64,000 bases of DNA. It comes from a virus. A program made the translations under genes and the position numbers. This document shows, piece by piece, positions 19,748-61,509 of this stretch. The notes below the pieces were generated by a model. The model worked only from the letters and a program-made list of their open reading frames with translations. It did no database searches and had not been told where the DNA came from. The stretch spans positions 1 to 64,000 of the IMG/VR virus record IMGVR_UViG_3300001683_000016. One strand, written 5' to 3'. Position 1 is the first letter of the stretch, and each line of letters starts with the position of its first letter.

Positions 19748-20416
19748 TTACGCCACTTGTCTAGCAACATCGCCTATTCGTTGTTGCATGATATCTCTTG
19801 TTTGATTGTTCCTAAGCACAGACAGGGCTGCATTCATAGCATCGCTACCACCGTGTTTATCGTATGACTGTCCCATTTCTTCAGGTGTCATCTGCCCATA
19901 GACTTCTTCTGTATGTGGCGGCTTATATTGCATTGATTGTAATTCAGACACTTCCGACCCCCAACCTTGTCCTTTAGGTGCTCCTTGTGCTCTATACGGT
20001 CCAGCGCCACCTACATCAACATAGGTGGGTGTTCCATCAGGTCTCATCAATACGTTGTCCATATCCGCACCTAACGCATCCCAATTACCAATCAACGCCT
20101 GAGGTACGAAATCTTCTCTTAGCCTCTTCTTATCATCATAAGATACATTTCTAGCCCCTTCTTCAAAATCTGTGAGCATAGTGGGTCTACCTCTTTCTTC
20201 TACCATTTCAGCATTAGGTACGGCCAAACCTAATTTATTCAGGTAGCGATTCATATCGAACTCATTATTGATATGTGCTGCGGGGTTACCGCCAGCAAAC
20301 CCTCCTCGCTTTACCACAACTCTCTTTCCGTTAGGTAATGTGCGTAAACCTGCACCAGTAGAGCCTCTGAGTCTGACTTCTTCTTTAAGAAAAGCCCATG
20401 CATCATGTATTGTCAT
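19748..20416 (-). CDS. tagged PI3K/HipA-like kinase-fold protein
   Basis: N-terminal DAWAFLK tag; VVVK, NEF, LG.AVP, IGNWD....DNV, YVDVG. Confidence 0.6.
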   Translation of the reverse strand: MTIHDAWAFLKEEVRLRGSTGAGLRTLPNGKRVVVKRGGFAGGNPAAHINNEFDMNRYLNKLGLAVPNAEMVEERGRPTMLTDFEEGARNVSYDDKKRLREDFVPQALIGNWDALGADMDNVLMRPDGTPTYVDVGGAGPYRAQGAPKGQGWGSEVSELQSMQYKPPHTEEVYGQMTPEEMGQSYDKHGGSDAMNAALSVLRNNQTRDIMQQRIGDVARQVA

Positions 20417-45070: not shown

Positions 45071-45451
45071 ATGTCGGCGGCATTCGGTAATGCATGGAAT
45101 GTGCTCAAAGCGTTACCAAATCAGCAAGTTGAGATACCCGGTGCACGATATACTTCTCATGGGCCGCAGCCAGTAAAAACTATGCATCCGGGGATTGCTT
45201 CGTTGTTGGCGAGGAAGCCGGGTGCCAATATACAAAATCCTGATATGATTGATTCGCAAAATATGGAAATGCACATGAGTGGGGAAGAAAGGGGTGGTCC
45301 AGCGCAACTTTGGGACCCCGTTAATGAAAAAATGATAACATTACCTATGAGTGAATCGTCTATGTCTGATGTTCATATGAATGATTATGGCAAAAAGCCA
45401 AATTGGGCGCTTAACTCAGTAGGAAGATTGGCTAACGATGGTCAATCATAA
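45071..45451 (+). CDS. tagged protein (AFGNAWNVLK)
   Basis: ATG at 45071 gives the shared N-terminal tag. Confidence 0.7.
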   Translation: MSAAFGNAWNVLKALPNQQVEIPGARYTSHGPQPVKTMHPGIASLLARKPGANIQNPDMIDSQNMEMHMSGEERGGPAQLWDPVNEKMITLPMSESSMSDVHMNDYGKKPNWALNSVGRLANDGQS

Positions 45452-45539: not shown

Positions 45540-46286
45540 ATGGTGGCAGCGTTCGACCAAGCGTGGGCTTTGCTGAAGGCAGTAGAGTTCGACCCTTATG
45601 CTAAGGACATAAAGGAGGCTCGCCCCTTCAAAGCATATCGTAGTATTCCGACGAAGTTCCTCGATGAGGTGCTTTCCGAAGGCATACAGCCAAGAAGTGT
45701 AGAGCCATGGACGGAAAGGATGCAGAGAAGCGGCCTCAAGCCTGAAACGAGCGCCAGCAAAGCCCATGTTTGGTCACCGAGTGACAAAGGAGTGTGGTCG
45801 TTCATGCATAAAAGAGGTGCTTTACCCAATACCAAAGGGCAACAAGAACTGAGAGAATCATGGCCTTATGCCCCTGTGAGTCATCCTGCTCTGTCTGCGC
45901 GGTATTTTGCTGATAACTTTAGTCGTCGGGCGGCAGAAATAGCAGAGACACCTGAACATATTAAAAGCAAAAAAATGCTTGATGGGGTAAAATCATCATC
46001 GACTATGCCCCCTCAGTCATTTTGGGACGAATATGCGAAACTGAATGACAATCTCCAACACTCGATAGTAGGTTCCACTATATTACCTCCGGGCAAGAGA
46101 TTCGAGGACTTGGATTGGCACAAGGGTCGTGACTATGCGACAAAACCTATACTAACGACAGACCCAATACCAGCGAGATATTTAGATGAGGCTATCCCGT
46201 TAGACTTTCAAGGAAACGAAATCCGTTATACACAAGGTAGTCGCATACCAGATAATTTTCGTAATGAATGGGGGTTTAACGAATGA
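45540..46286 (+). CDS. tagged protein, ADP-ribosyltransferase-like
   Basis: AFDQAWALLK tag; AYRS...VLSEGIQP, GVWSF, DPIPARYL. Confidence 0.5.
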   Translation: MVAAFDQAWALLKAVEFDPYAKDIKEARPFKAYRSIPTKFLDEVLSEGIQPRSVEPWTERMQRSGLKPETSASKAHVWSPSDKGVWSFMHKRGALPNTKGQQELRESWPYAPVSHPALSARYFADNFSRRAAEIAETPEHIKSKKMLDGVKSSSTMPPQSFWDEYAKLNDNLQHSIVGSTILPPGKRFEDLDWHKGRDYATKPILTTDPIPARYLDEAIPLDFQGNEIRYTQGSRIPDNFRNEWGFNE

Positions 46287-46927
46287 ACCCCTTCAACCAA
46301 GCGTGGCTTTTGCTGAAGTCCGAAATGCTGTTGTGGCCCAAACAACTCAACAATTACCGCAGCCCCGACTCTGCCAAGAGCAAGCCTGAATTGAGAATGC
46401 CGGGGCAGTTCAAGAAGCCGAGCGCAGCCGGATTCACTCAATTGTATCAGAAACCCGGTTTGGCTCGTTCATACGTGTCTCTTCCCAATATGGAACAACC
46501 GGGAAGTAGGATTGGTCTGAATAGCACTCTTAATGACCCCGCTATATCGGATAAGGACAAGGCAGGAGTCCAAGGAAGATATGATGAGCGTTTAGCCCAC
46601 AATGTGATGGGAACTGATGTACACGAGGATACGCATGTTGCGATGGATAGGATTGGGGAGACTTCGGACAATCCTTACCACAATGAGTTACCAGCCCACA
46701 TAGCAGAGACGCTTCAATTCACGAGAAGGCCGAGAGAAACGATAAACTCCAATGATGTGGTGCTTCAAGACCTCGATAGCGGCATGTCCCCTACTGAAGT
46801 CGCAGTCAAACGTGGAAAACAAGGAGCGATGATGCATCAACAGGTTAGTGGAACTGGACCCGATAATGGGATGTACACAACTGTAGGGCCGCAGAAGTTC
46901 ACCTATACGGGGGAACAGGGACAATGA
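46283..46927 (+). CDS. tagged protein, zincin metallopeptidase-like
   Basis: MNPFNQAWLLLK tag; HEDTH followed by NELPAH. Confidence 0.55.
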   Translation: MNPFNQAWLLLKSEMLLWPKQLNNYRSPDSAKSKPELRMPGQFKKPSAAGFTQLYQKPGLARSYVSLPNMEQPGSRIGLNSTLNDPAISDKDKAGVQGRYDERLAHNVMGTDVHEDTHVAMDRIGETSDNPYHNELPAHIAETLQFTRRPRETINSNDVVLQDLDSGMSPTEVAVKRGKQGAMMHQQVSGTGPDNGMYTTVGPQKFTYTGEQGQ

Positions 46928-47982
46928 ACCCCTTCGACCAAGCGTGGGTTTTGCTGAAACAAGAAGATAATAGAGATGAGATGATTGAAGGTGCATACCC
47001 TCACGAAACTCATTTGTGCAAACATTGTGGCTATCCCATCTATCACCATTGGCAACAAGGGCAAGGTGATGGAAGTCACCCACCGCAAGAGGTGTGGAGT
47101 GGTGAAGATGATGAAGGCGGAAACTGTTCAAGCCCAAGTGGATTTTGTGAGCCGGGAGAATCTCTCGGTAGGACATATCAAAGTGGTGAACCAATTGAGG
47201 CCACACCCGAATCGCACCCGAATCAAATCTACTTGAATGGGCGATTGGTTGATGCGAATGATTGGACAGACGAGCATGAAGCAGAAGTGAATGCTAACAA
47301 AGACCCGGAATCGGGCCAGCCGCTAGTCAATTGGAATGATACTTGGGATTGGAATAAGGATATTCAAACAGGCGAACCTATGGAAGTCGCTATGCGGTTG
47401 TTGAAGGATGATGACCCTCTGCAACATGTTGGGACATTTCTCAATCAATTAACACCGGATGATACGGGGGTTGAAAGATTAGGCGACCATACTGTTCACT
47501 TTGAAGGATTTACTGATATGTGCAATCTGTCAATCACACCTAATTGCCCTGCTGAACAATTACACCAAGAAGTGTGGGATGACTTTGATAAGCGACAAGG
47601 GCAAGAAGCCATCCATAGAGGTAAATGGGGTACGGAAGAAAACCCTACTATTTATTCTGTATATCATACACCGCAAGATGAGGTCAAAACAGGCGAACCT
47701 ATGGACATCGCCATGCGGTTGTTGAAGGGGCGTAACCTTTCACCAGCAGCACGTAAACACAAGTTGGAATACGATACAAAATACGAGTCTAACCCTAAAA
47801 GGGTCAAATATAGAGTTGACCTGAATCGTGAAAGACGGCGCAGGGGCATCTATGGTTCGGGCAACCGTAAAGATGTGAGTCATACCGAAGGTGGTAAACT
47901 CACCTTAGAAAACGAACACGATAATAGGGCTAGGCACTTTAAGGGTAAAGGCACACTTCGCAGAGTTAAGGTGAAGAAATGA
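46924..47982 (+). CDS. tagged polyprotein (Zn finger / unknown / HNH-like)
   Basis: N-terminal tag plus two internal TGEPMxxAMRLLK; CKHCG; C-terminal DVSH...NRAR. Confidence 0.7.
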   Translation: MNPFDQAWVLLKQEDNRDEMIEGAYPHETHLCKHCGYPIYHHWQQGQGDGSHPPQEVWSGEDDEGGNCSSPSGFCEPGESLGRTYQSGEPIEATPESHPNQIYLNGRLVDANDWTDEHEAEVNANKDPESGQPLVNWNDTWDWNKDIQTGEPMEVAMRLLKDDDPLQHVGTFLNQLTPDDTGVERLGDHTVHFEGFTDMCNLSITPNCPAEQLHQEVWDDFDKRQGQEAIHRGKWGTEENPTIYSVYHTPQDEVKTGEPMDIAMRLLKGRNLSPAARKHKLEYDTKYESNPKRVKYRVDLNRERRRRGIYGSGNRKDVSHTEGGKLTLENEHDNRARHFKGKGTLRRVKVKK

Positions 47983-48476
47983 ACCCCTTCAACCAAGCGT
48001 GGCTTTTGCTGAAGGCACCCATTTATGAAACAGGTATTCCCAACATCAATTTTGTTACACAAGGCCCATTTCCAGACCCTTTTTGGAGGGAAGAGGAAAA
48101 TGTATACGGCTACGTTCCTGATGACCCAAAAGGGAATGCGTATGGCTATTATGATGAAGGAAATGAGGTTGGGGAGATTCAACATATGACACCCGGTGAA
48201 TACGGAAAAATGACTACTGGTGAGGAAAAGGGTGGTATGTATGTTGACGCATTGGGAAGAAAAAAGTCTCCAAGAGAGTCAGATGACACTTTCTATCAAG
48301 AGTTGATGGATAGGGCACAAGCGGGAGAGAACGTCAAGTTCGGTATGCCGTATGTTTTTCCCGATTTTGAGCCTGAAACATATCATGATGGGAGACATAG
48401 AATGGCTGAACTCTTCGCTCGTGGTCATGGTGATACACCCTTACCAGTCAAAGTCATGAGGGGGACTCACGGATGA
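47979..48476 (+). CDS. tagged protein, ParB/Srx-like
   Basis: MNPFNQAWLLLK tag; MTPGEY, HDGRHR...G...LPV. Confidence 0.55.
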   Translation: MNPFNQAWLLLKAPIYETGIPNINFVTQGPFPDPFWREEENVYGYVPDDPKGNAYGYYDEGNEVGEIQHMTPGEYGKMTTGEEKGGMYVDALGRKKSPRESDDTFYQELMDRAQAGENVKFGMPYVFPDFEPETYHDGRHRMAELFARGHGDTPLPVKVMRGTHG

Positions 48477-48946
48477 ACCCCTTTGACCGAGCGTGGGCTT
48501 TGCTCAAACAAGATACGCGTCAAAGTACGTTAGGTGAGTATCATCCTGATTTTCCTTCCCCATATGGCGATGTGAAGTATTACCATGGGACAACAGTAGA
48601 GCCAGCGTCGAGAATTAACTTTGAAGGGTTGAAGCCGACGGAACCTTCCACGCTAGGGTGGAATCGAAAACTAAGTGGAATGTTTCCTAAAGGTGTATAT
48701 GCAACCGATAATAAAGATGTAGCAGCCGATTATGCCCACACGAGAGGGCAAAATAGGAATCAACAGGGTCGAATATTTGGAATAAGGGAAGGGGCACCCC
48801 AACAAGCAAATCCTACAACGCCGTTAACGCCGAATGCGCCCGATAACGTATTTCGATATGACGAAAAAATACCGAGACAGTATCTTACTCCGGTAGATTA
48901 CCCAAGTGAGAAACTTGTCCCATATTTTAGGTACGGAGATGAGTGA
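48473..48946 (+). CDS. tagged protein, ADP-ribosyltransferase (H-Y type, Tpt1/Arr-like)
   Basis: MNPFDRAWALLK tag; YYHGT, I..EGL, GVYAT, A..YA, IPRQYL. Confidence 0.65.
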   Translation: MNPFDRAWALLKQDTRQSTLGEYHPDFPSPYGDVKYYHGTTVEPASRINFEGLKPTEPSTLGWNRKLSGMFPKGVYATDNKDVAADYAHTRGQNRNQQGRIFGIREGAPQQANPTTPLTPNAPDNVFRYDEKIPRQYLTPVDYPSEKLVPYFRYGDE

Positions 48947-49795
48947 ATGAGTGACTTCTCCATTTACGAAGTTGGTCCACGCGACGGTCTACAGAGCGCC
49001 GACACAATAACATCAACATATGACAAAGTAACCCTGATACGAAAAATTGCTAAGGCCGGTATCAAAAATATCGAAGTTGGCTCAATGGTCAATCCTGACA
49101 GAGTTCCTAATATGGCCGATAGCGATGTGGTTTTTCTCAAGGTTCAAGATTTAGCGCCTGAGCACAATCTCGGTGTCTTAGTGCCTAATCGCAGGGGAGT
49201 TGAGAGAGGAAAGGCTGTAGGTGTGGAAAAGTTCAATATTTTTTTCTCGCCGTCCAACTTTTTCAATGTCAATAACTTCGGAAAGAGCCTAAATACGATT
49301 TTTGCTGAATATTGTGGTGCATTAGACGGAATCCGACCCGAAAACGTTAGAGTATACCTTTCTACAGCCTTTGGATGTCCCATAATAGGTGAAATACCGC
49401 AAGAAGATATGTTAAAAACCATGGAATGGGCTAATACGCTGGGTGATACTATCGTTTTGTCTGATACAATTGGCAATGCTAACCCGTCCTTAATTCGTAA
49501 AGTGATGCGTTTAACTGACAGAAAAATAGATGCTAAGATAGCACTACATCTACATCATGGATTTAGAGAGGGTAGAATGTATGATAACTTGTCTGCTGGC
49601 TTTGATTGTGGGATAACTCAGTTCGATTCAAGCATTGGTGGGATGGGCGGATGTCCGTTTATACCGGGTTCAGGGGGCAATTTAGCCACTGAACAATTAG
49701 TACGCTGGGGTAGTAAAGAGAATCTTGATTGTGGTGTTACGATTAAAGATTTAGAACCGCTAATGAAGTTTGTAAATACTAGAATAAAAGTATAG
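48947..49795 (+). CDS. hmgL: hydroxymethylglutaryl-CoA lyase (DRE-TIM)
   Basis: EVGPRDGLQ, VPNMAD, AFGCP, DTIG, HLH, GGCPF..G..GNLATE. Confidence 0.92.
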   Translation: MSDFSIYEVGPRDGLQSADTITSTYDKVTLIRKIAKAGIKNIEVGSMVNPDRVPNMADSDVVFLKVQDLAPEHNLGVLVPNRRGVERGKAVGVEKFNIFFSPSNFFNVNNFGKSLNTIFAEYCGALDGIRPENVRVYLSTAFGCPIIGEIPQEDMLKTMEWANTLGDTIVLSDTIGNANPSLIRKVMRLTDRKIDAKIALHLHHGFREGRMYDNLSAGFDCGITQFDSSIGGMGGCPFIPGSGGNLATEQLVRWGSKENLDCGVTIKDLEPLMKFVNTRIKV

Positions 49796-51053: not shown

Positions 51054-51579
51054 ATTGAATAAAAGACCAAAGAAAGGTGTTGCAGTAGTTATTAGCATCG
51101 GTCCTAAAATGAAAACTAAGCCAACGGATGCTGCTACTCCTGAAATGCCAATAAAGAAGTATGGTTCAATGCCAATGAAAAAGGCAATGGCTGTTCTAAA
51201 ACAAAGGGGTAAATATGTACCCACAACTGCTGAAGATGAATATGTTGCATCAAATTCTGAAAATCGACATCATCCTATGAGTAATAGAGAAAAGGATGAG
51301 GCGTGGAAAGAGGCGCAGTTAGATGGAAGATATGATGAAGATTACTATCCCGATGAGGATGAAACACCTATATGGAATGATAATCGACAACCAATCGGTA
51401 AACCTGAGTTTGGTAATGAAGGTGCACGTGAAGCAGAAATGAATCAAGCAGAGCGTGCTGCAATAATGGCAGAAGGTATGCCTGAGGGGCGTAGACCTCG
51501 TATTCCACCTCGAACAGAAGGTTTTGACCCTAATAAGCAAGGTCGAGTGCCAAGAGATATTTTTCAAAATAGAAGGTAA
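51046..51579 (+). CDS. protein with internal tag variant (PMKKAMAVLK)
   Basis: GTG start overlapping the upstream stop. Confidence 0.6.
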   Translation: MSKLNKRPKKGVAVVISIGPKMKTKPTDAATPEMPIKKYGSMPMKKAMAVLKQRGKYVPTTAEDEYVASNSENRHHPMSNREKDEAWKEAQLDGRYDEDYYPDEDETPIWNDNRQPIGKPEFGNEGAREAEMNQAERAAIMAEGMPEGRRPRIPPRTEGFDPNKQGRVPRDIFQNRR

Positions 51580-51583
51580 GTGA

Positions 51584-51811
51584 ATGAGTGCTTTCACAAA
51601 ATCTTGGCTATTTCTCAAAACCGAGCCAATTGATATGCAGCAAGGCTCAGATGGAACTTGGCGTGCACCTCAGGAAGATATAACACCAGAAAAAAAATTG
51701 TGGCAACAAATCCAAGCAAGAAACGCACAGGCTAGGCAAAACTTGCAGAAACCTGCACAAGTAGCACAACCTAAACCTACACCACAACCGGGGTATTCAG
51801 GATGGATGTAA
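51584..51811 (+). CDS. tagged small protein (AFTKSWLFLK)
   Basis: Tag variant. Confidence 0.65.
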   Translation: MSAFTKSWLFLKTEPIDMQQGSDGTWRAPQEDITPEKKLWQQIQARNAQARQNLQKPAQVAQPKPTPQPGYSGWM

Positions 51812-51812
51812 A

Positions 51813-54695
51813 ATGGTATTCAATAAATCTTGGAACTATTTGAAATCAATAAGCGATTGGTCGTCTACTGATAGTTTATATGGTAATGAGTATGAAGATG
51901 AACCTAGTATAGAAAGAAGAAATACTCCAACTATGGATAACTCGTATCAAAAAATCTTACCTCAAGATGACCCAAGATTAGATTATAGAACTGGTTGGAA
52001 AGGTGTAGAACCCGTTAGGGCTATTCGTGTACAATCAAATCATCGAAAGGCAGGTCAACCCGTACCTCAAGACGGCTCTAATATAAATTATGAACAAGGT
52101 GACCCAAAGTTACCGCCAAAGATTCCTGAGATACCTGATGACGATGACCCTGTTTGGGATGACCCCGACTCACGATGGAGTAAAGACCCCAAATCGGGTT
52201 CAAGATATTATATGTCGGGTAAATATGAAGATGGTAAGTATATTTCTCGTAAAAACAAGCATTTTGTTGATTTGAAAAATGCAAAGGCTGGAACTTGGGC
52301 TGCAAACAATACTGTTGGGGATATTAATAATTTATATACTCATAACCAACCTGATAAGTTGGTCTATATTCGTGGGAGTCCCGATAAATATGGTAAAGTA
52401 CACAGAAGGGATAGTGACGAAGCGGATGAAGGTTTAGCAGAAATGTTTATCGAACATAAAAAAGATATTTCACCTGAAAACCTTGTTGAAGTACCGTTAA
52501 AGACTCATTATAGAAACCAAACAAAAGATATGGGTACTCCTGACCTTGGGCATAATAGACGCTCAAAAAGTGATAAAAGCGGGCGAGTTAGTCGTTGGAG
52601 TGATAAACCTGTACCTTGGGGCTACAGCCACAAGAAAAAGGGCGAACCAATGGACATAGCCTTCCAGTTGCTCAAGATGTCTGCTGATGAAGCAGATGAG
52701 TTGGAAGAGCAAATGCTTTCTGATATGGAAAGAGGGACCAGTAATCCACGCTCACGAAGAAAACAGCGAAGTATGGGCGAAAGGGAATCAAAGGCATCTA
52801 TCCATAATTTTCCCGGTTCATCATCTCGTAGAGAAATGTGGGATGAAAAGCAGAAAGAAAGAGACTGGGAACGATGGGGAAAGAGACATGCTGAAGATAA
52901 AGCAATTGCAGGAAAAGACCTACCCTCATATCATGGGTTTGGTAGCGATAGGCTAAGAGAAATCCATCCGGGTGATAGAGGGAACGATTTCTCATCTATG
53001 AAACCGGGAAAATATGAGTTTGACGGTGTAGGTAGGGAAGAAAGACCCATACCTTTTGAGCCGGGTGATAACCTTATGGAGTGGTTACAGCCCGGATACA
53101 ACGAATCTAACAACCTAAGACTATTCAGGGATAAGGATGACTCTAAACATGAGTGGCAACCAAAACCGTGGACAACAAGTGGCCCTATCAATCATGTTCC
53201 CGAAACCCAAGAATGGGTAAACAACCCTTTTGATGAAGAACCAACTTTTCACGGGATACCATTCAATGAAGATACGGGTTTCACAACAGGTGAACCAATG
53301 GACATAGCCTTCCAGTTGCTCAAGGGAAAGACAAGGCAATCTACTCTTTGGGGTTACGACCCAAAAATGGTAGAGAACTTACTCGCAGAAGATAACAGTA
53401 ATATTTTCATCGCCGCTAAACCCGGAAACGATGATATGCCCGATGATGAACAAAATGAGCGTTCGGATAAAATGCTACAAGACCTCGCCGCACTCAAAGA
53501 GGAACATGGTCACTTCGATATAACCAGTGCCACAGGTAGAGCGCAGTGGGACGCAGAACCATCTTTCATGCTCACTAACGTGCCTGATAGTGCAAGGGAT
53601 TCCATTAATGAGATAGCGGAAAGATACGGTCAGGAATCCATGGGAATCTCGGAAAAGGGGGAGAAAGGGGTGAACTACGTTACACCGGAGGGGGAGGTAA
53701 AGGACAAGTTCAGTAGTATGGAGATGCAGGAAAAACCGGAGTACTCTACAGATTTTCCGAGTAGTCAGAGGCTGGCTTTTACGGGTTGGCAGGAAGCAAA
53801 TAAGGCTAATCCAATGCACATAGCCTTCCAGTTGCTCAAGGGTTGGGCAGGTGGTGTTAGAGGTATAGGTAATAATGCCACGGACAACATTTATCATTAT
53901 CCACACGAATTAGATTACGGCGCGATAGACGAATATATGGGTGAGAATCCTGATGCTACTCTCGGTAGTATGGTAACGCCGTATCTACAAGGACAGTTTA
54001 CAAATAATCCTCCTCTCTTTCCAGAATTAAGCACAAATCCGCCAACCTATCAAAGTGAAAGACCTACTCAATTACAAAGCACAGTTCCGGCACCTTTTCC
54101 ACAAACCCCCGAACAATCTAAAGGTGTTCAAAATCTCATTGATGATGGATTTGAAAACTATGAATCTAGAGATAGAACGAGAAAACCCCATTACGATAGC
54201 ATGAATAATGCAGTCAGAGTATTATCTAGAAATTTAAGAAGAAACCCTGCATACAATTTTACGCCGCCGGGACGATTACGAGGCACTAAGGGACAGGGCG
54301 GTAGAAGTAGGCAAATGCAGAACATGAAACTAAGAAGTTTGTTAGATACTCCTGTATCTCAAAGTATGGCAGAGATGAACATACCGAAACAAGGAATACC
54401 AATTGCGGCAGGCGAACCAATGAACATAGCCTTCCAATTGCTCAAAGAGCGCAAGTCACCAGCAGCATTTGCTCACAAGTTAGAGTATGACAAGCAATAT
54501 CAAAAGACACCTAAGCGCGTAAAGTACCGTGAGCAATTAAACGCAGAGCGTAGGAAGCGTGGCATATACGGTAAGGGTGGTGCGGATGTTAGCCACACAC
54601 AAGGTGGTAAACTCACTCTTGAAAGCGCACATGCTAATAGAGCAAGACATTTCAAAAACAAAGGCACTCTCCGCAGGGTCAAGGTGAAAAAATGA
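51813..54695 (+). CDS. tagged five-segment polyprotein (ART-like / unknown / SAM-lyase-like / unknown / HNH-like)
   Basis: N-terminal FNKSWNYLK; internal PMxIAFQLLK at 52641, 53289, 53811 and 54411. Confidence 0.8.
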   Translation: MVFNKSWNYLKSISDWSSTDSLYGNEYEDEPSIERRNTPTMDNSYQKILPQDDPRLDYRTGWKGVEPVRAIRVQSNHRKAGQPVPQDGSNINYEQGDPKLPPKIPEIPDDDDPVWDDPDSRWSKDPKSGSRYYMSGKYEDGKYISRKNKHFVDLKNAKAGTWAANNTVGDINNLYTHNQPDKLVYIRGSPDKYGKVHRRDSDEADEGLAEMFIEHKKDISPENLVEVPLKTHYRNQTKDMGTPDLGHNRRSKSDKSGRVSRWSDKPVPWGYSHKKKGEPMDIAFQLLKMSADEADELEEQMLSDMERGTSNPRSRRKQRSMGERESKASIHNFPGSSSRREMWDEKQKERDWERWGKRHAEDKAIAGKDLPSYHGFGSDRLREIHPGDRGNDFSSMKPGKYEFDGVGREERPIPFEPGDNLMEWLQPGYNESNNLRLFRDKDDSKHEWQPKPWTTSGPINHVPETQEWVNNPFDEEPTFHGIPFNEDTGFTTGEPMDIAFQLLKGKTRQSTLWGYDPKMVENLLAEDNSNIFIAAKPGNDDMPDDEQNERSDKMLQDLAALKEEHGHFDITSATGRAQWDAEPSFMLTNVPDSARDSINEIAERYGQESMGISEKGEKGVNYVTPEGEVKDKFSSMEMQEKPEYSTDFPSSQRLAFTGWQEANKANPMHIAFQLLKGWAGGVRGIGNNATDNIYHYPHELDYGAIDEYMGENPDATLGSMVTPYLQGQFTNNPPLFPELSTNPPTYQSERPTQLQSTVPAPFPQTPEQSKGVQNLIDDGFENYESRDRTRKPHYDSMNNAVRVLSRNLRRNPAYNFTPPGRLRGTKGQGGRSRQMQNMKLRSLLDTPVSQSMAEMNIPKQGIPIAAGEPMNIAFQLLKERKSPAAFAHKLEYDKQYQKTPKRVKYREQLNAERRKRGIYGKGGADVSHTQGGKLTLESAHANRARHFKNKGTLRRVKVKK

Positions 54696-55063
54696 GTAAT
54701 TATCCGTCATACCCAACGACACCTCCTAAAAAATGTGAATATTGTAATGGTGCTGGAATTATTGACCCTTATGGTGATGAAGAGGATGTGGCTCAGGCTG
54801 ACCCAAGATATCCACATGAAACATGTTGGAAGTGCAAAGGAACAGGTATACAGACAGAATGGTCATTTAACCCATATATGCCTTCTTTCCACCCCCCTTC
54901 TTTCCCCCCCCCTTCTTTCCACCCCCCTTCTTACCACGCCCCTCCCCCGTCCAAAATGGAATTAGGAGAGCCAACAATTAATTTTGACCCTGAATGGCAA
55001 GAAATGAATAAAAGTTCTAGTGTTGCATTTTCATTAGCGTGGAACTTACTTAAATCAGAATAA
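54692..55063 (+). CDS. Zn-finger/Pro-repeat protein with C-terminal tag (AFSLAWNLLK)
   Basis: CEYCNGAG, CWKCKGTG; PSFHP repeats. Confidence 0.65.
   Translation: MSNYPSYPTTPPKKCEYCNGAGIIDPYGDEEDVAQADPRYPHETCWKCKGTGIQTEWSFNPYMPSFHPPSFPPPSFHPPSYHAPPPSKMELGEPTINFDPEWQEMNKSSSVAFSLAWNLLKSE
54881..54937 (+). repeat. 15-bp tandem repeat with poly-C (PSFHP, about 4 units)
   Basis: ccttctttccacccc units. Confidence 0.8.
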
Positions 55064-56162: not shown

Positions 56163-56879
56163 GTGGTCGCTGCGAGTGGTAGTGTATTAGTAGGCGTGGC
56201 CTTGTATGGTAAACAAGCATACAATAATTGGAAATCTCGAAGAGTAGGGATTTATGGTGCAACTATGGTTGGTAAGACAACTTTAGACAAATATATGACT
56301 ACTCCGGGCGAAATGGAAGAAATACCTGAACATGAAAGAACCACGCATTTTAAGTTGGTTACTCGCTATATACTTCCTAAACCTACTCGTAAAAGAGTTC
56401 GCTGGGAAGGTGAAAGGAGGGTTATTCATTCTGCCGACATAGGTGGCGAAGAGCGTTTTTGGAATCTTTGGATTGATGATATGGTAACTAGACAATGTGA
56501 ATACGTTATATTCATGTTTGATGATAGAGCGTTTCAAGGAGGGGATGAGGCTTTACAGCAAGTAGGAGGTTTTAGATTCTTAGTTGATAGTATAATAAAT
56601 AGAAATTATAGGTATAGAAACTGGAAGAGTTGGAGAAGGGGTAAGAGGTATGTGCCTAAGATGATATTACTAGTTGCAAATAAAGCAGATAGATATTTTG
56701 ATGCTAAAGCGGCACAGTTATGGAGAGAGGGTAGAATTGGAGAACATAAGATATTTGACCCTTTTAGAGAAGACCTAATTAGATTACAAAAAGCAGGTGT
56801 ACCAACGCGCCGTTCATTCATGGCAACACGTATAGGGTGGAACGTTGAGAACACATTATTAGAGATGATAGATTACTGA
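56163..56879 (+). CDS. Ras-superfamily (Arf/Rab-like) small GTPase
   Basis: G1 GATMVGKTT, G2-like RTT, G3 DIGG, VIFMFD, G4 NKAD, G5-like MATR.G.NV. Confidence 0.85.
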   Translation: MVAASGSVLVGVALYGKQAYNNWKSRRVGIYGATMVGKTTLDKYMTTPGEMEEIPEHERTTHFKLVTRYILPKPTRKRVRWEGERRVIHSADIGGEERFWNLWIDDMVTRQCEYVIFMFDDRAFQGGDEALQQVGGFRFLVDSIINRNYRYRNWKSWRRGKRYVPKMILLVANKADRYFDAKAAQLWREGRIGEHKIFDPFREDLIRLQKAGVPTRRSFMATRIGWNVENTLLEMIDY

Positions 56880-59715: not shown

Positions 59716-60116
59716 TACCTGTATCGGATTTAATGCAAGTTCAACATCCGGGTTATCGTACTTTTATACAATCTAATACTATGTCCGCTATGCATTATCC
59801 TTTATTTTTTGATTATTGTATATGTGTATCAGAAAGATTTAGACATTATGCATATCAAGAGGCTAATGTACTAATTAATGAAAATAGTCTTATGCATATA
59901 ATAGATTGCATAAAACAATTAGATGATACCGATGAGCCTGAAATAGTATTACCGTTGAGAGAACAGATAAGACATTCATGTTACGAGTTCTTAGAACATT
60001 GTAATGATATGTCTACTAAATTCAAAAGCCCAACCAGTATTTCTTTATTTTATAATGAGTTAGGACAACTCGTGATGCAGACCGCTTTTGAGTTTGCGGG
60101 GGTACAACATGAGTAA
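59712..60116 (+). CDS. hypothetical protein
   Basis: 134-aa coupled ORF. Confidence 0.6.
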   Translation: MIPVSDLMQVQHPGYRTFIQSNTMSAMHYPLFFDYCICVSERFRHYAYQEANVLINENSLMHIIDCIKQLDDTDEPEIVLPLREQIRHSCYEFLEHCNDMSTKFKSPTSISLFYNELGQLVMQTAFEFAGVQHE

Positions 60117-61509
60117 GCCAGTAAAGATTTTGAAGTCAGGTATGACTAGTACTGGTAGCGATACTCGTATGTATGGACCGAGAAGTGAATCCTCTCACAT
60201 GTTCCATGGTAATCACGAAGATGAAGGGGATGTTTACGGTGGAGAAGGGGGTGAATATCGTGATGCAAGAATTGACCGCAAAAAGAAAGAACGTAAAGAA
60301 AGAGAATCTGAAATGAAGAAGTTAAGACATATTTCAGTAACTACAGCAGATTTACCTCCTGAAGATGAGGAAGAAAAAGATAAAGACTTAGAACCGACAA
60401 AATTCGATAATGAACTTGAGCCTTCTTTAATGACCGGTACTCCGGGTAATTTTGGTGCTATGACTAGTATGGCTAATCAAGCAAGGGGGCCGGGTTTTGC
60501 CGGTGGGCATAATTTTGCTATGGGAGAACCAATGAATATAGCGTTCCAGTTATTGAAAGGCGGGAGAGCCGGTTTTATAGGTAAAAAACCAAAGAGGGCG
60601 AAGGGTGCTAAAGCAGCAAGAGCGCATAAAGAAAGGCAGAAGAAATGGAGGCCATCTACTGGTGAGTTCAAAAGGCCGCCGGGTGGTATGACACCGGCTA
60701 GTGCTACATCTAGAAGAGCAAAGGCAAGAATGCGAGGTATTGCCGGTAGCAAGAAAACAGGGTTAGGTAGAGCACATCTTGCTGTCGAAATGTCTCACAG
60801 AGGTGTAAAAACTAAACAGCCTATGTCGAAAGATGTAAAGAGATATAGACAATACCTAGGACAGTCTGAAGCAAGAAAGCGTTTAGGTAACATACGAACT
60901 ATTTCTTCTACACCTTCTAGATTTGGTGCACGTTCATACAAAGCGGGGTTAACTGGCGGTGGTACACTACAAAGTCTACTCCCCGGACAAGCCCAACAAA
61001 TGAGAAGACCATCACTTAGGTCAATTAGACCTCCACCGTTAATGCCACCTTCTGCACCTAGTAGAGCCACTTTACCTTCACCTTCCATACCGAGTCCTCC
61101 TGTAATGTCCCAACCAAGAATGGGAGTTGGGGTGCAAAGCATGTCCAACCAAAGTCCAACTTATAGACCTAAGTTACCTAGTTCTTCAATACAAGGTGCA
61201 CCTGTAATGACTGGTGAGATTGGAGAAGGTAGTGAACTACAAAAAAGGGGACTATCATACTATGACACCACAGAATTAAGACAATTACTCCTTGATGCTA
61301 AAAGAGCCTTGAACCGTAAAGAGAATAAGAAAAAGGGTAAAGGAGAGAGAAGTACAGATGCTGCTAGTCATTTACCCGCCCATACAGAAGCAGGCCCGAA
61401 ACAGACCACAAGACCTGAAGGCGCTACAGAAGATGCAAATAATGAGCCTCGCACATTTGGTATTAATCCTCTAGACCATCTTACAAGTAGAGGCGGTAGA
61501 ACACCTTGA
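60109..61509 (+). CDS. acidic/basic low-complexity protein with internal tag (GEPMNIAFQLLK)
   Basis: Tag at 60523-60558 separates an acidic segment from an R/K-rich segment. Confidence 0.75.
   Translation: MSKPVKILKSGMTSTGSDTRMYGPRSESSHMFHGNHEDEGDVYGGEGGEYRDARIDRKKKERKERESEMKKLRHISVTTADLPPEDEEEKDKDLEPTKFDNELEPSLMTGTPGNFGAMTSMANQARGPGFAGGHNFAMGEPMNIAFQLLKGGRAGFIGKKPKRAKGAKAARAHKERQKKWRPSTGEFKRPPGGMTPASATSRRAKARMRGIAGSKKTGLGRAHLAVEMSHRGVKTKQPMSKDVKRYRQYLGQSEARKRLGNIRTISSTPSRFGARSYKAGLTGGGTLQSLLPGQAQQMRRPSLRSIRPPPLMPPSAPSRATLPSPSIPSPPVMSQPRMGVGVQSMSNQSPTYRPKLPSSSIQGAPVMTGEIGEGSELQKRGLSYYDTTELRQLLLDAKRALNRKENKKKGKGERSTDAASHLPAHTEAGPKQTTRPEGATEDANNEPRTFGINPLDHLTSRGGRTP

Follow-up and report, generated by a model that had tools for sequence, protein, structure and literature searches.

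Portable peptide tags join exchangeable cassettes in a 960-residue polyprotein of a magrovirus

The 960-aa open reading frame (ORF) at positions 51813-54695 of the viral DNA record IMGVR_UViG_3300001683_000016 (IMG/VR; positions 1 to 64,000, 64,000 bp, hereafter the window) is a chain of five independent cassettes, S1 to S5, each headed by a copy of one short peptide tag. This conclusion is strongly supported by related proteins, in which the cassettes recur in other orders, in other proteins and alone. The tag spans about 12 residues and has the joint consensus P-[M/F/I]-[D/E/N]-x-A-[F/W/M]-x-L-L-K; we propose, at roughly even odds, that it is an address for the virus head and, at the same time, a cut site at which the head protease processes the cassette polyprotein. 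The window makes up the left 64 kb of one 115,554-bp contig (40% G+C), which comes from a head-tailed archaeal virus of the magrovirus kind. Within it, genes for a family-B DNA polymerase and an SNF2 helicase lie on the minus strand; the plus strand past the window encodes the large terminase, the portal, an 1879-aa protein, an HK97-type (Pfam S78) prohead protease with a scaffold-like tail, the capsid protein (Pfam SU10_MCP), the tail tube and a tape-measure-like protein. The closest cultured relatives of the capsid protein are those of the haloarchaeal siphoviruses HVTV-1, HCTV-1 and HCTV-5 (31-34% identity), a level of identity that agrees with the relationship reported for magroviruses by Philosof et al. 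(PMC5434244). Since the same capsid protein is found in more than 600 viral contigs and 1447 database proteins (77-100% identity among the best 80 loci and the best 120 proteins), the virus belongs to a very common marine group. In the surface ocean, few archaeal viruses are as abundant as magroviruses, and the role of most of their genes is obscure; the tag gathers dozens of such genes per genome, and at least 467 metagenome protein clusters, into one functional class.

A preliminary description of this DNA had noted a 29-nt repeat that occurs four times in the ORF and splits it into five unrelated segments, and both observations were borne out. The pattern CCAATGNACATAGCCTTCCANTTGCTCAA matches exactly at 52647, 53295, 53811 and 54417 on the plus strand and nowhere else in the window, and none would be expected by chance (mean 0.00 matches in 100 dinucleotide-preserving shuffles). 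Between the five segments, BLASTP detected no similarity at E 1e-5. The linker coordinates given there were also correct, in a mixture of two conventions, as 52641, 53289 and 54411 are the starts of 12-codon linkers (GGC/GGT GAA ...), while 53811 is the start of the 29-nt core, the 12-codon linker beginning there at 53805. The repeat encodes [G/A]-[E/N]-P-M-x-I-A-F-Q-L-L-K. Scanning the whole genome in six frames with the motif [FIM]-x-x-[AS]-[WFM]-x-[LY]-L-K, we found about 20 copies of the tag between 45 and 61 kb of the window and one more at 20.4 kb, at the N-terminus of about 10 genes (45-52 kb), inside the ORF at 60088-61509, at the C-terminus of the ORF at 54692-55063 and in one minus-strand gene; the modules that carry them are unrelated by BLASTP. 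The ORF at 46924-47982 had been described as built on the same plan, and it does combine an N-terminal tag and two linkers with a last module in common with the 960-aa ORF, its last 84 aa being homologous to the last 82 aa of the latter. Searches of Pfam, PHROGs and PDB sequences returned no match for S1, S2 or S4, and no embedded peptidase domain was found in the 960-aa ORF.

To see how the cassettes are combined elsewhere, we compared ten related viral contigs, whose homologous ORFs have 439 to 764 aa, and searched 1.84 billion representative proteins, which yielded 467 clusters (139 at E <= 1e-30); tags and modules were mapped on the best 150 of these. The closest relative (L004, 91% identical) is without S2, other relatives have the module sets S1-S3-S5 (L007), S1 with S5 (L011) and S3-S1-S5 (P0006), S5 precedes S3 in P0055, P0057 and P0068, and S1 is joined to other modules in L004-L007, L011, P0006 and P0033-P0054. 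S3 lies within the homologue of the ORF at 60088-61509 in L008, L010 and L011, straight after the tag of that protein, and straight after the own tag of a different protein in P0017; in L006 and L007 the post-tag spot of the 60088-61509 homologue is held by a different module. Forms with a single module exist for S3 (P0012, P0081), for S4 (behind MKAFEQAWTLLK in P0137) and for S5 directly after a tag (P0088, P0092, P0120). P0044 begins with an N-terminal tag and, immediately after it, S2; next come a linker and an ADP-ribosyltransferase (ART)-like module of the family of the stand-alone gene at 48473-48946, indicating that stand-alone tagged genes and polyprotein modules come from one pool. 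Among the best 150 clusters every module order is met, there are one to seven tags per protein (the maximum of seven in P0145) with a median tag-to-tag distance of 168 residues, and the unit of tag and S5 is nearly always C-terminal. The cassette junction is exact, because the same module begins right after the Lys whichever type of tag precedes it: S2 starts with MSADE directly after MKSFEQAWLFLK in P0044 and directly after GEPMDIAFQLLK in the window, and S3 starts with RQTTL directly after ...LK of either tag type. The segments thus do exist as separate units elsewhere, and of the earlier interpretation, that these are fused cassettes released as separate proteins by proteolysis, the fused cassettes stand, whereas the proteolytic release is plausible from sequence motifs. 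S5 has, in addition, tag-free stand-alone homologues of 42-58% identity in T7-like cyanophages (Syn5 gp50, P60, S-CBP2, P-SSP10 and others; L095:550-828), and is therefore common to marine archaeal and cyanobacterial viruses. Two metagenome proteins of another lineage (P0019, P0023) fuse an S-adenosylmethionine (SAM)-lyase module to a GNAT acetyltransferase module; their joints read ..GSWFDLVK, which may be a second dialect of the tag.

Structures were predicted with AlphaFold2 (AF2) for the two halves of the polyprotein with module-wise alignments, because full-length alignments misaligned S2 or S4. All six tag copies folded were modelled as a short helix with a predicted local distance difference test score (pLDDT) below 50 on both flanks, and the tag is predicted to form a short amphipathic helix. 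The predicted template modelling scores of the halves are low (0.44 and 0.37), as expected for beads on a string, although a low score is no proof of such an arrangement. S1 (beta-rich) and S4 (helical) have confident cores; S2 and S5 were modelled poorly. The top six Foldseek matches of the S3 model are the SAM lyases of T3 and Svi3-3 (probability 0.99-1.00), VIA aligned it to 7ock_L, the T3 enzyme, with Z 10.0 and a root mean square deviation of 3.6 Å over 126 residues (next match 6.4), and 19 of 25 S3 homologues match Pfam S-AdoMet_lyase (PF23780) at E <= 0.01 (best 3.4e-6), the window S3 itself scoring 17.7 bits against a cut-off of 28. By its predicted structure S3 is therefore a SAM-lyase-like module with a SAM-lyase fold. 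Both structure searches ranked the ART-like effector AvrPphF ORF2 first for S1, with a Z of only 4.4; together with the conserved motifs ..V-x-x-R-G.., RRDSDEA and LAExF[IL]EH, this match suggests a putative ADP-ribosyltransferase of the R-S-E type, a lead rather than a finding. The structure searches, in which modules were folded within halves and S3 filled the list for the second model, left S1, S2, S4 and S5 unexplained. An HNH (beta-beta-alpha metal finger) reading of S5, suggested by its invariant D-x-S-H ... N ... H, was dropped, as two of the His residues are missing in Syn5 gp50; the low-confidence model of S5 also spoke against adopting it.

In the mechanism we propose, the tag helix would dock each tagged protein or module on one common partner, for which some part of the assembling head, either the capsid protein or the protease-scaffold, is the likeliest candidate, and the hydrophobic-Leu-Lys end of the tag would be the cleavage site for the S78 head protease, so that inside the procapsid the polyprotein would be cut after each ...LLK into separate cargo proteins. 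The cargo, including the SAM-lyase-like enzyme, ADP-ribosyltransferase-like modules and basic DNA-binding tails, would then enter the next host with the DNA, and the tags would act at the DNA level as near-identical repeats where recombination adds, removes and swaps cassettes. We infer the docking partner, the head loading and the cut itself, and our confidence differs from part to part. That the tag is a shared address for one partner is highly probable, and that this partner is the assembling head seems somewhat better than an even bet. We put forward only tentatively the complete plug-and-play scheme, in which the portable helix would load any protein into an HK97-fold head and mark the protease cut, the cassettes would be freed and injected, and the DNA tags would reshuffle the arsenal. 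The SAM-lyase fold of S3 and the weak ART matches give the cargo the look of effectors, and the tagged proteins are probably pre-loaded for the first minutes of infection.

Several observations point to the head and its protease. The protease-scaffold gene (genome 75967-77334) lies directly upstream of the capsid gene, and its product matches Pfam Peptidase_S78 (PF04586) with 38 bits (cut-off 21) and a PHROG head maturation protease. Every tag variant ends in hydrophobic-[L/V/M]-K (..LLK, ..ILK, ..VLK, ..FLK, ..LMK, ..LVK), with the terminal Lys in 226 of 226 internal tags; one divergent variant, GEAMKVGDVLVK of P0008, still aligns with GEPMDIAFQLLK position by position. Near its N-terminus the capsid protein reads GSELLK/ADSPM, in which GSELLK/AD is invariant and the Lys is residue 34 (K34/A35). 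This site aligns with GG-MSK/ADNLL, around residue 102, in the capsid protein of HVTV-1 (457 aa, about 74 extra N-terminal residues). Among 63 distinct protease sequences the N-terminal stretch varies (RNGDSP, LRRDES, QPQQSG, PAHPAS) and ends just before the S78 domain in a motif with an invariant Lys, mostly [IL]-x-[ILV]-[LIV]-K-[GAS]; the S78 domain is in turn closed by F-x-I-[LI]-K-[EQ]-D, after which a variable acidic linker leads to the scaffold part. The HK97 protease, the type enzyme of the S78 family, cuts its own capsid protein at K103/S104 (PMC10275583). With this Lys ending shared by the probable capsid and protease sites, and HK97 cutting after Lys, it is plausible that the head protease cuts the tags as well, and for cleavage at the ..LLK of the tag the head protease acting after Lys is our best single guess, with a chance of being right that comes close to even. 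Loci with a ..LLK or ..ILK protease site have ..LLK-type tags, and at loci with a ..IVK or ..IIK protease site (L050, L062, L061, L068, L069, L071) genes of the structural module start with MGDVLVK, MMGHVLVK or MSRILVK, which hints weakly at co-variation of protease site and tag. As for gene position, ten loci (L029, L030, L037, L047, L075, L015, L024, L026, L041, L048) carry tagged genes within the structural module, 2-4 kb past the start of the capsid gene. In L061, L068, L069 and L071, where the neighbours were read, that spot has head genes on one side and tail genes on the other; it is flanked by the '..DDIERLQKRGIRL' gene and the 'MPxVFSPGE' gene and occupied by a gene that opens with a short VLVK/ILVK motif. 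In the window's genome there is nothing at the post-capsid spot, the tagged genes being kept at 45-55 kb. The 1879-aa protein (genome 70282-75921), whose gene follows that of the portal and precedes that of the protease, takes the place of a 1313-aa 'zeta toxin' protein of HVTV-1. It reads ..RHRTELLK/AI at residue 34 from its N-terminus, the same place as SELLK/AD in the capsid protein, and in other lineages it starts with MIGPILK/EEE or MVWPVLK/QEE.

Several points weigh against this reading of the tag. A hydrophobic-Leu-Lys tripeptide is common, and the capsid site lies within a stretch that is invariant anyway, the best 80 loci and the best 120 database homologues all being at least 77% identical, so that conservation of ELLK does not discriminate by itself. 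Twelve conserved residues far exceed what a cleavage site needs and point to docking; a C-terminal tag (...LLKSE and stop) would shed no more than two residues if cut, which means that docking must be the primary role and that cutting may be absent, and a cut behind the Lys would leave a C-terminal tag on S1 to S4. The co-variation of protease site and tag comes from about three independent lineages, and since one lineage has L and I at its two protease sites, the enzyme may tolerate L, I and V. Finally, the tagged cluster sits where leftward replication genes and rightward genes diverge, which leaves its late expression in doubt, and one tagged gene is found within the replication module.

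Two alternatives keep the tag as a working peptide and change what it does. The polyprotein could be an uncleaved polyvalent protein, a single multi-effector chain in which the tags are docking or spacer helices that provide several attachment points. This would suit a tag that is much longer than a cleavage site and also works at the C-terminus, where a cut would serve no purpose; phages, moreover, have a known class of multi-domain polyvalent proteins (PMC5512222), and the 1879-aa protein between the portal and protease genes is of similar style. The constant Lys at the end of the internal tags with a module beginning right after it, the same ending at the probable processing sites of the capsid protein and protease, and the existence of the modules as single tagged genes, which indicates that they work as separate proteins, all argue for separation, and we regard an uncleaved chain as unlikely, though as the strongest of the competing explanations. 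The address could alternatively be a destination other than the head, for instance some machinery of the host, a site on a membrane, a viral factory, or a system for degradation or chaperoning: the tie between tag and capsid is a proposed one, one tagged gene (19748-20416) lies among replication genes on the other strand, and partners of many kinds would suit an amphipathic helix that contains Trp or Phe. Against this, a motif common to the head protease and the capsid protein, and tagged genes inside the structural module in many relatives, point to the head. So does the protein at 60088-61509, which joins a tag to a basic tail of 316 aa (isoelectric point (pI) 11.5) and into which relatives insert extra modules directly after the tag; such a make-up would be expected if an internal, DNA-bound protein were freed from a precursor. 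We therefore consider a non-head address improbable.

The other two alternatives place the function in the nucleic acid. Internal translation starts at the linker Met, mentioned as an option in the preliminary description, would make the ORF a hidden operon, in which each Met preceded by a GGnGA ribosome-binding site yields a separate N-tagged protein without proteolysis. A GGTGA or GGCGA does lie upstream of the linker ATG in three of the four linkers of the 960-aa ORF, GG(T/C/A)GAACCNATG is read in these three and in many linkers elsewhere, the spacing resembles that of the real start aaGGTGAagaaATG at 47979, Met is retained in 210 of 226 linkers (93%), and some predicted proteins open exactly with MDIAFRLLK; a linker may plausibly have arisen when a ribosome-binding site and a start codon were fused in frame after loss of a stop codon. 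When tags are aligned on their Lys, however, the Met of the linkers (G-E-P-M-D-I-A-F-Q-L-L-K) falls on Phe4 of the N-terminal tags (M-N-P-F-D-Q-A-W-x-L-L-K), that is, on a hydrophobic position of the helix, and the residues found there in the 226 internal tags are M 210, F 6, I 5, L 3 and Y 2. Of the linkers available as DNA, those of L006, L007 and L009 have ATA (Ile) and one more has Phe, and there are internal tags without Met (KKSVIVLK in P0017, GSWFDLVK in P0019). In 89 of 226 linkers Ser stands in for the Gly at -11, and the wobble base of this Gly codon (T 14, A 7, C 7, G 1) is distributed as in the genome at large (GGT 54%, GGA 23%, GGC 15%), which indicates no selection for GGTGA. Glu and Pro are conserved as amino acids, and the tag is also found at the C-terminus. 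The case for internal starts is weakened accordingly, and present-day internal initiation as a general mechanism is possible but unlikely. Still less probable, indeed barely credible in our view, is that the repeats matter as DNA only, either as anchors of cassette exchange or as chimeras of short-repeat assembly, with a functionless peptide. What favours it is codon usage and mosaicism: nearly every linker copy in the polyproteins of several genomes uses GCC, TTC, CAG, TTG and CTC, which genome-wide make up 10, 42, 21, 15 and 7% of the codons for their amino acids, so that the rare ones among them (GCC, CAG, TTG, CTC) are retained across genomes, and identity to L004, 84% over S1, is 95.8% for everything from the opening bases of linker 2 onwards, with the S2 indel adjoining. 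This breakpoint on a tag indicates that the tags are also homology anchors for cassette exchange. In contrast, other tag families differ by synonymous codons and still encode the peptide (GCA TTT CAA TTA in the 60088 family vs GCC TTC CAG TTG in polyprotein linkers), it is conserved across 467 clusters sharing at most 50% identity, and the tag is always in frame and helical in models. Repeats of 29-36 nt could mislead small-k assembly, and the module order of the window contig is given as assembled; the architecture, which recurs in hundreds of independent assemblies, is no artefact. RNA structure at the linkers was considered and rejected, the four 70-nt windows folding differently with z-scores of 0.01 to -1.16.

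The proposed head address and cut site can be compared with several known systems. The internal proteins of T4 are diverse anti-restriction proteins with only a capsid targeting sequence (CTS) in common, which directs them into the head, from where they are injected with the DNA (PMC3012670). As in T4, where gp21 removes the CTS of IPI-III and Alt, a peptide of about 10 residues is all that diverse, fast-changing proteins share, and the locus is hypervariable in both cases. The protease here is of the HK97-type S78 family instead of gp21, the proposed cut falls after Lys and not after Glu, the tag is also internal (up to seven per protein) and C-terminal, giving polyproteins that are absent in T4, and loading and cutting are proposals here. 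We take the tag sequence to be unrelated to that of the CTS; with an S78 protease as well, the likeness to the T4 system is one of function and not of membership. Polyvalent proteins of phages and conjugative elements (Iyer et al. 2017, PMC5512222), a class presumed to reach the host together with the DNA, likewise have several unrelated conflict-type domains per polypeptide in shuffled combinations. Here one chain holds five unrelated modules, S3 with a predicted SAM-lyase fold and the rest weakly or not assigned; of the signature domains there is a weak ART-PolyVal match (E 0.093) in the neighbouring gene 48473-48946 only, besides the resemblance of S1 to AvrPphF ORF2. In the present system each joint carries one conserved portable tag, which also heads single-domain genes. 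Polyvalent proteins may reportedly be self-processed. Phage P1 packages anti-restriction proteins (DarA, Hdf, DarB and others) in its head and ejects them with the DNA, and the N-terminus of packaged DarA is trimmed by the head protease, the site adjoining the cleavage site of the capsid protein itself (PMC12810830). The Dar proteins differ from the tagged proteins in being encoded by separate genes without a common tag and in being loaded hierarchically, via DarA and Hdf. Encapsulins use a short cargo-loading peptide, at either end of the cargo, to dock unrelated cargo inside an HK97-fold shell; those peptides are extended, of Gly-Ser-Leu type, and involve no protease, whereas the present tag is helical in models and its docking on the capsid is proposed. 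Viral polyproteins and adenovirus precursors also have one repeated recognition motif between or at the ends of different products, but belong to eukaryotic viruses with modules fixed in order and identity, whereas the modules here are interchangeable accessories and their cleavage is a proposal. Capsid-targeting or processing tags and polyvalent proteins are thus kinds already known, while we found this tag system in no paper: the tag is absent from the magrovirus papers searched, and full-text searches for the peptide strings gave nothing relevant. If the tag is indeed an address and a cut site, archaeal viruses would have their first described capsid-targeting system, this would be a polyprotein strategy not known in tailed viruses, and the 12-residue peptide would be a ready tool for packing foreign proteins into an HK97-type shell.

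The coordinates of the polyprotein, its parts and the other tagged genes are given in Table 1. The module of the gene at 48473-48946 is also found inside the polyproteins P0041 and P0044.

Table 1. The 960-aa polyprotein, its tags and modules, and other tagged genes in the window
Feature	Position	Strand	Remarks
Polyprotein ORF, 960 aa, tag-S1-tag-S2-tag-S3-tag-S4-tag-S5	51813..54695	+	stop included
N-terminal tag MVFNKSWNYLK, aa 1-11	51813..51845	+	AF2 helix 7-13
S1, aa 12-276	51846..52640	+	beta-rich folded core aa 60-250, pLDDT 70-89
Linker tag 1 GEPMDIAFQLLK, aa 277-288	52641..52676	+	predicted helix 279-288, pLDDT <50 either side
S2, aa 289-492	52677..53288	+	acidic, modelled poorly; missing in closest relative L004
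Linker tag 2 GEPMDIAFQLLK, aa 493-504	53289..53324	+	mosaic breakpoint vs L004
S3, aa 505-664	53325..53804	+	SAM-lyase-like module (Pfam PF23780/PF11697, Foldseek, VIA)
Linker tag 3 ANPMHIAFQLLK, aa 665-676	53805..53840	+	
S4, aa 677-866	53841..54410	+	helical module, function unassigned; pLDDT up to 92
Linker tag 4 GEPMNIAFQLLK, aa 867-878	54411..54446	+	
S5, aa 879-960	54447..54692	+	small basic module, pI 10.8, phrog_6437; usual C-terminal module of the protein family
Tagged gene MTIHDAWAFLK	19748..20416	-	among replication genes
Probable tagged gene MSAAFGNAWNVLK	45071..45451	+	start placed from the tag
Stand-alone tagged gene MVAAFDQAWALLK	45543..46286	+	
Stand-alone tagged gene MNPFNQAWLLLK	46283..46927	+	HEDTH motif (from sequence)
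Second polyprotein, 352 aa	46924..47982	+	N-terminal tag MNPFDQAWVLLK, two modules, two linkers, S5-like end
Linker GEPMEVAMRLLK of second polyprotein	47371..47406	+	
Linker GEPMDIAMRLLK of second polyprotein	47692..47727	+	
Stand-alone tagged gene MNPFNQAWLLLK	47979..48476	+	
Stand-alone tagged gene MNPFDRAWALLK, 157 aa	48473..48946	+	weak PARP (E 0.013) and ART-PolyVal (E 0.093) matches
Tagged gene or module MPMKKAMAVLK	51169..51579	+	alone in L009; fused behind 234-252 aa in L006, L007
75-aa tagged gene MSAFTKSWLFLK	51584..51811	+	
Zinc-ribbon protein, C-terminal tag ..VAFSLAWNLLKSE and stop	54692..55063	+	tag end 55054; same arrangement in L004
Conserved protein: MSKPVKILK, acidic N-terminal domain, tag GEPMNIAFQLLK, basic tail	60088..61509	+	tag at 60523-60558

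Among the tagged cluster lies an untagged HMGL-like gene (pyruvate carboxyltransferase / HMG-CoA lyase family) at 48947-49795, matched at E 1.5e-25. The 238-aa protein encoded at 56163-56879 has a weak Roc/small-GTPase match (E 0.0021), and its neighbours are small membrane-like proteins. Past the window, a LAGLIDADG/HNH-like homing endonuclease gene (genome 66114-67256) lies between the terminase and portal genes, and an ORF of about 5500 aa (genome 88525-105075), downstream of the tape-measure-like gene, presumably encodes a giant tail fibre or adhesin.

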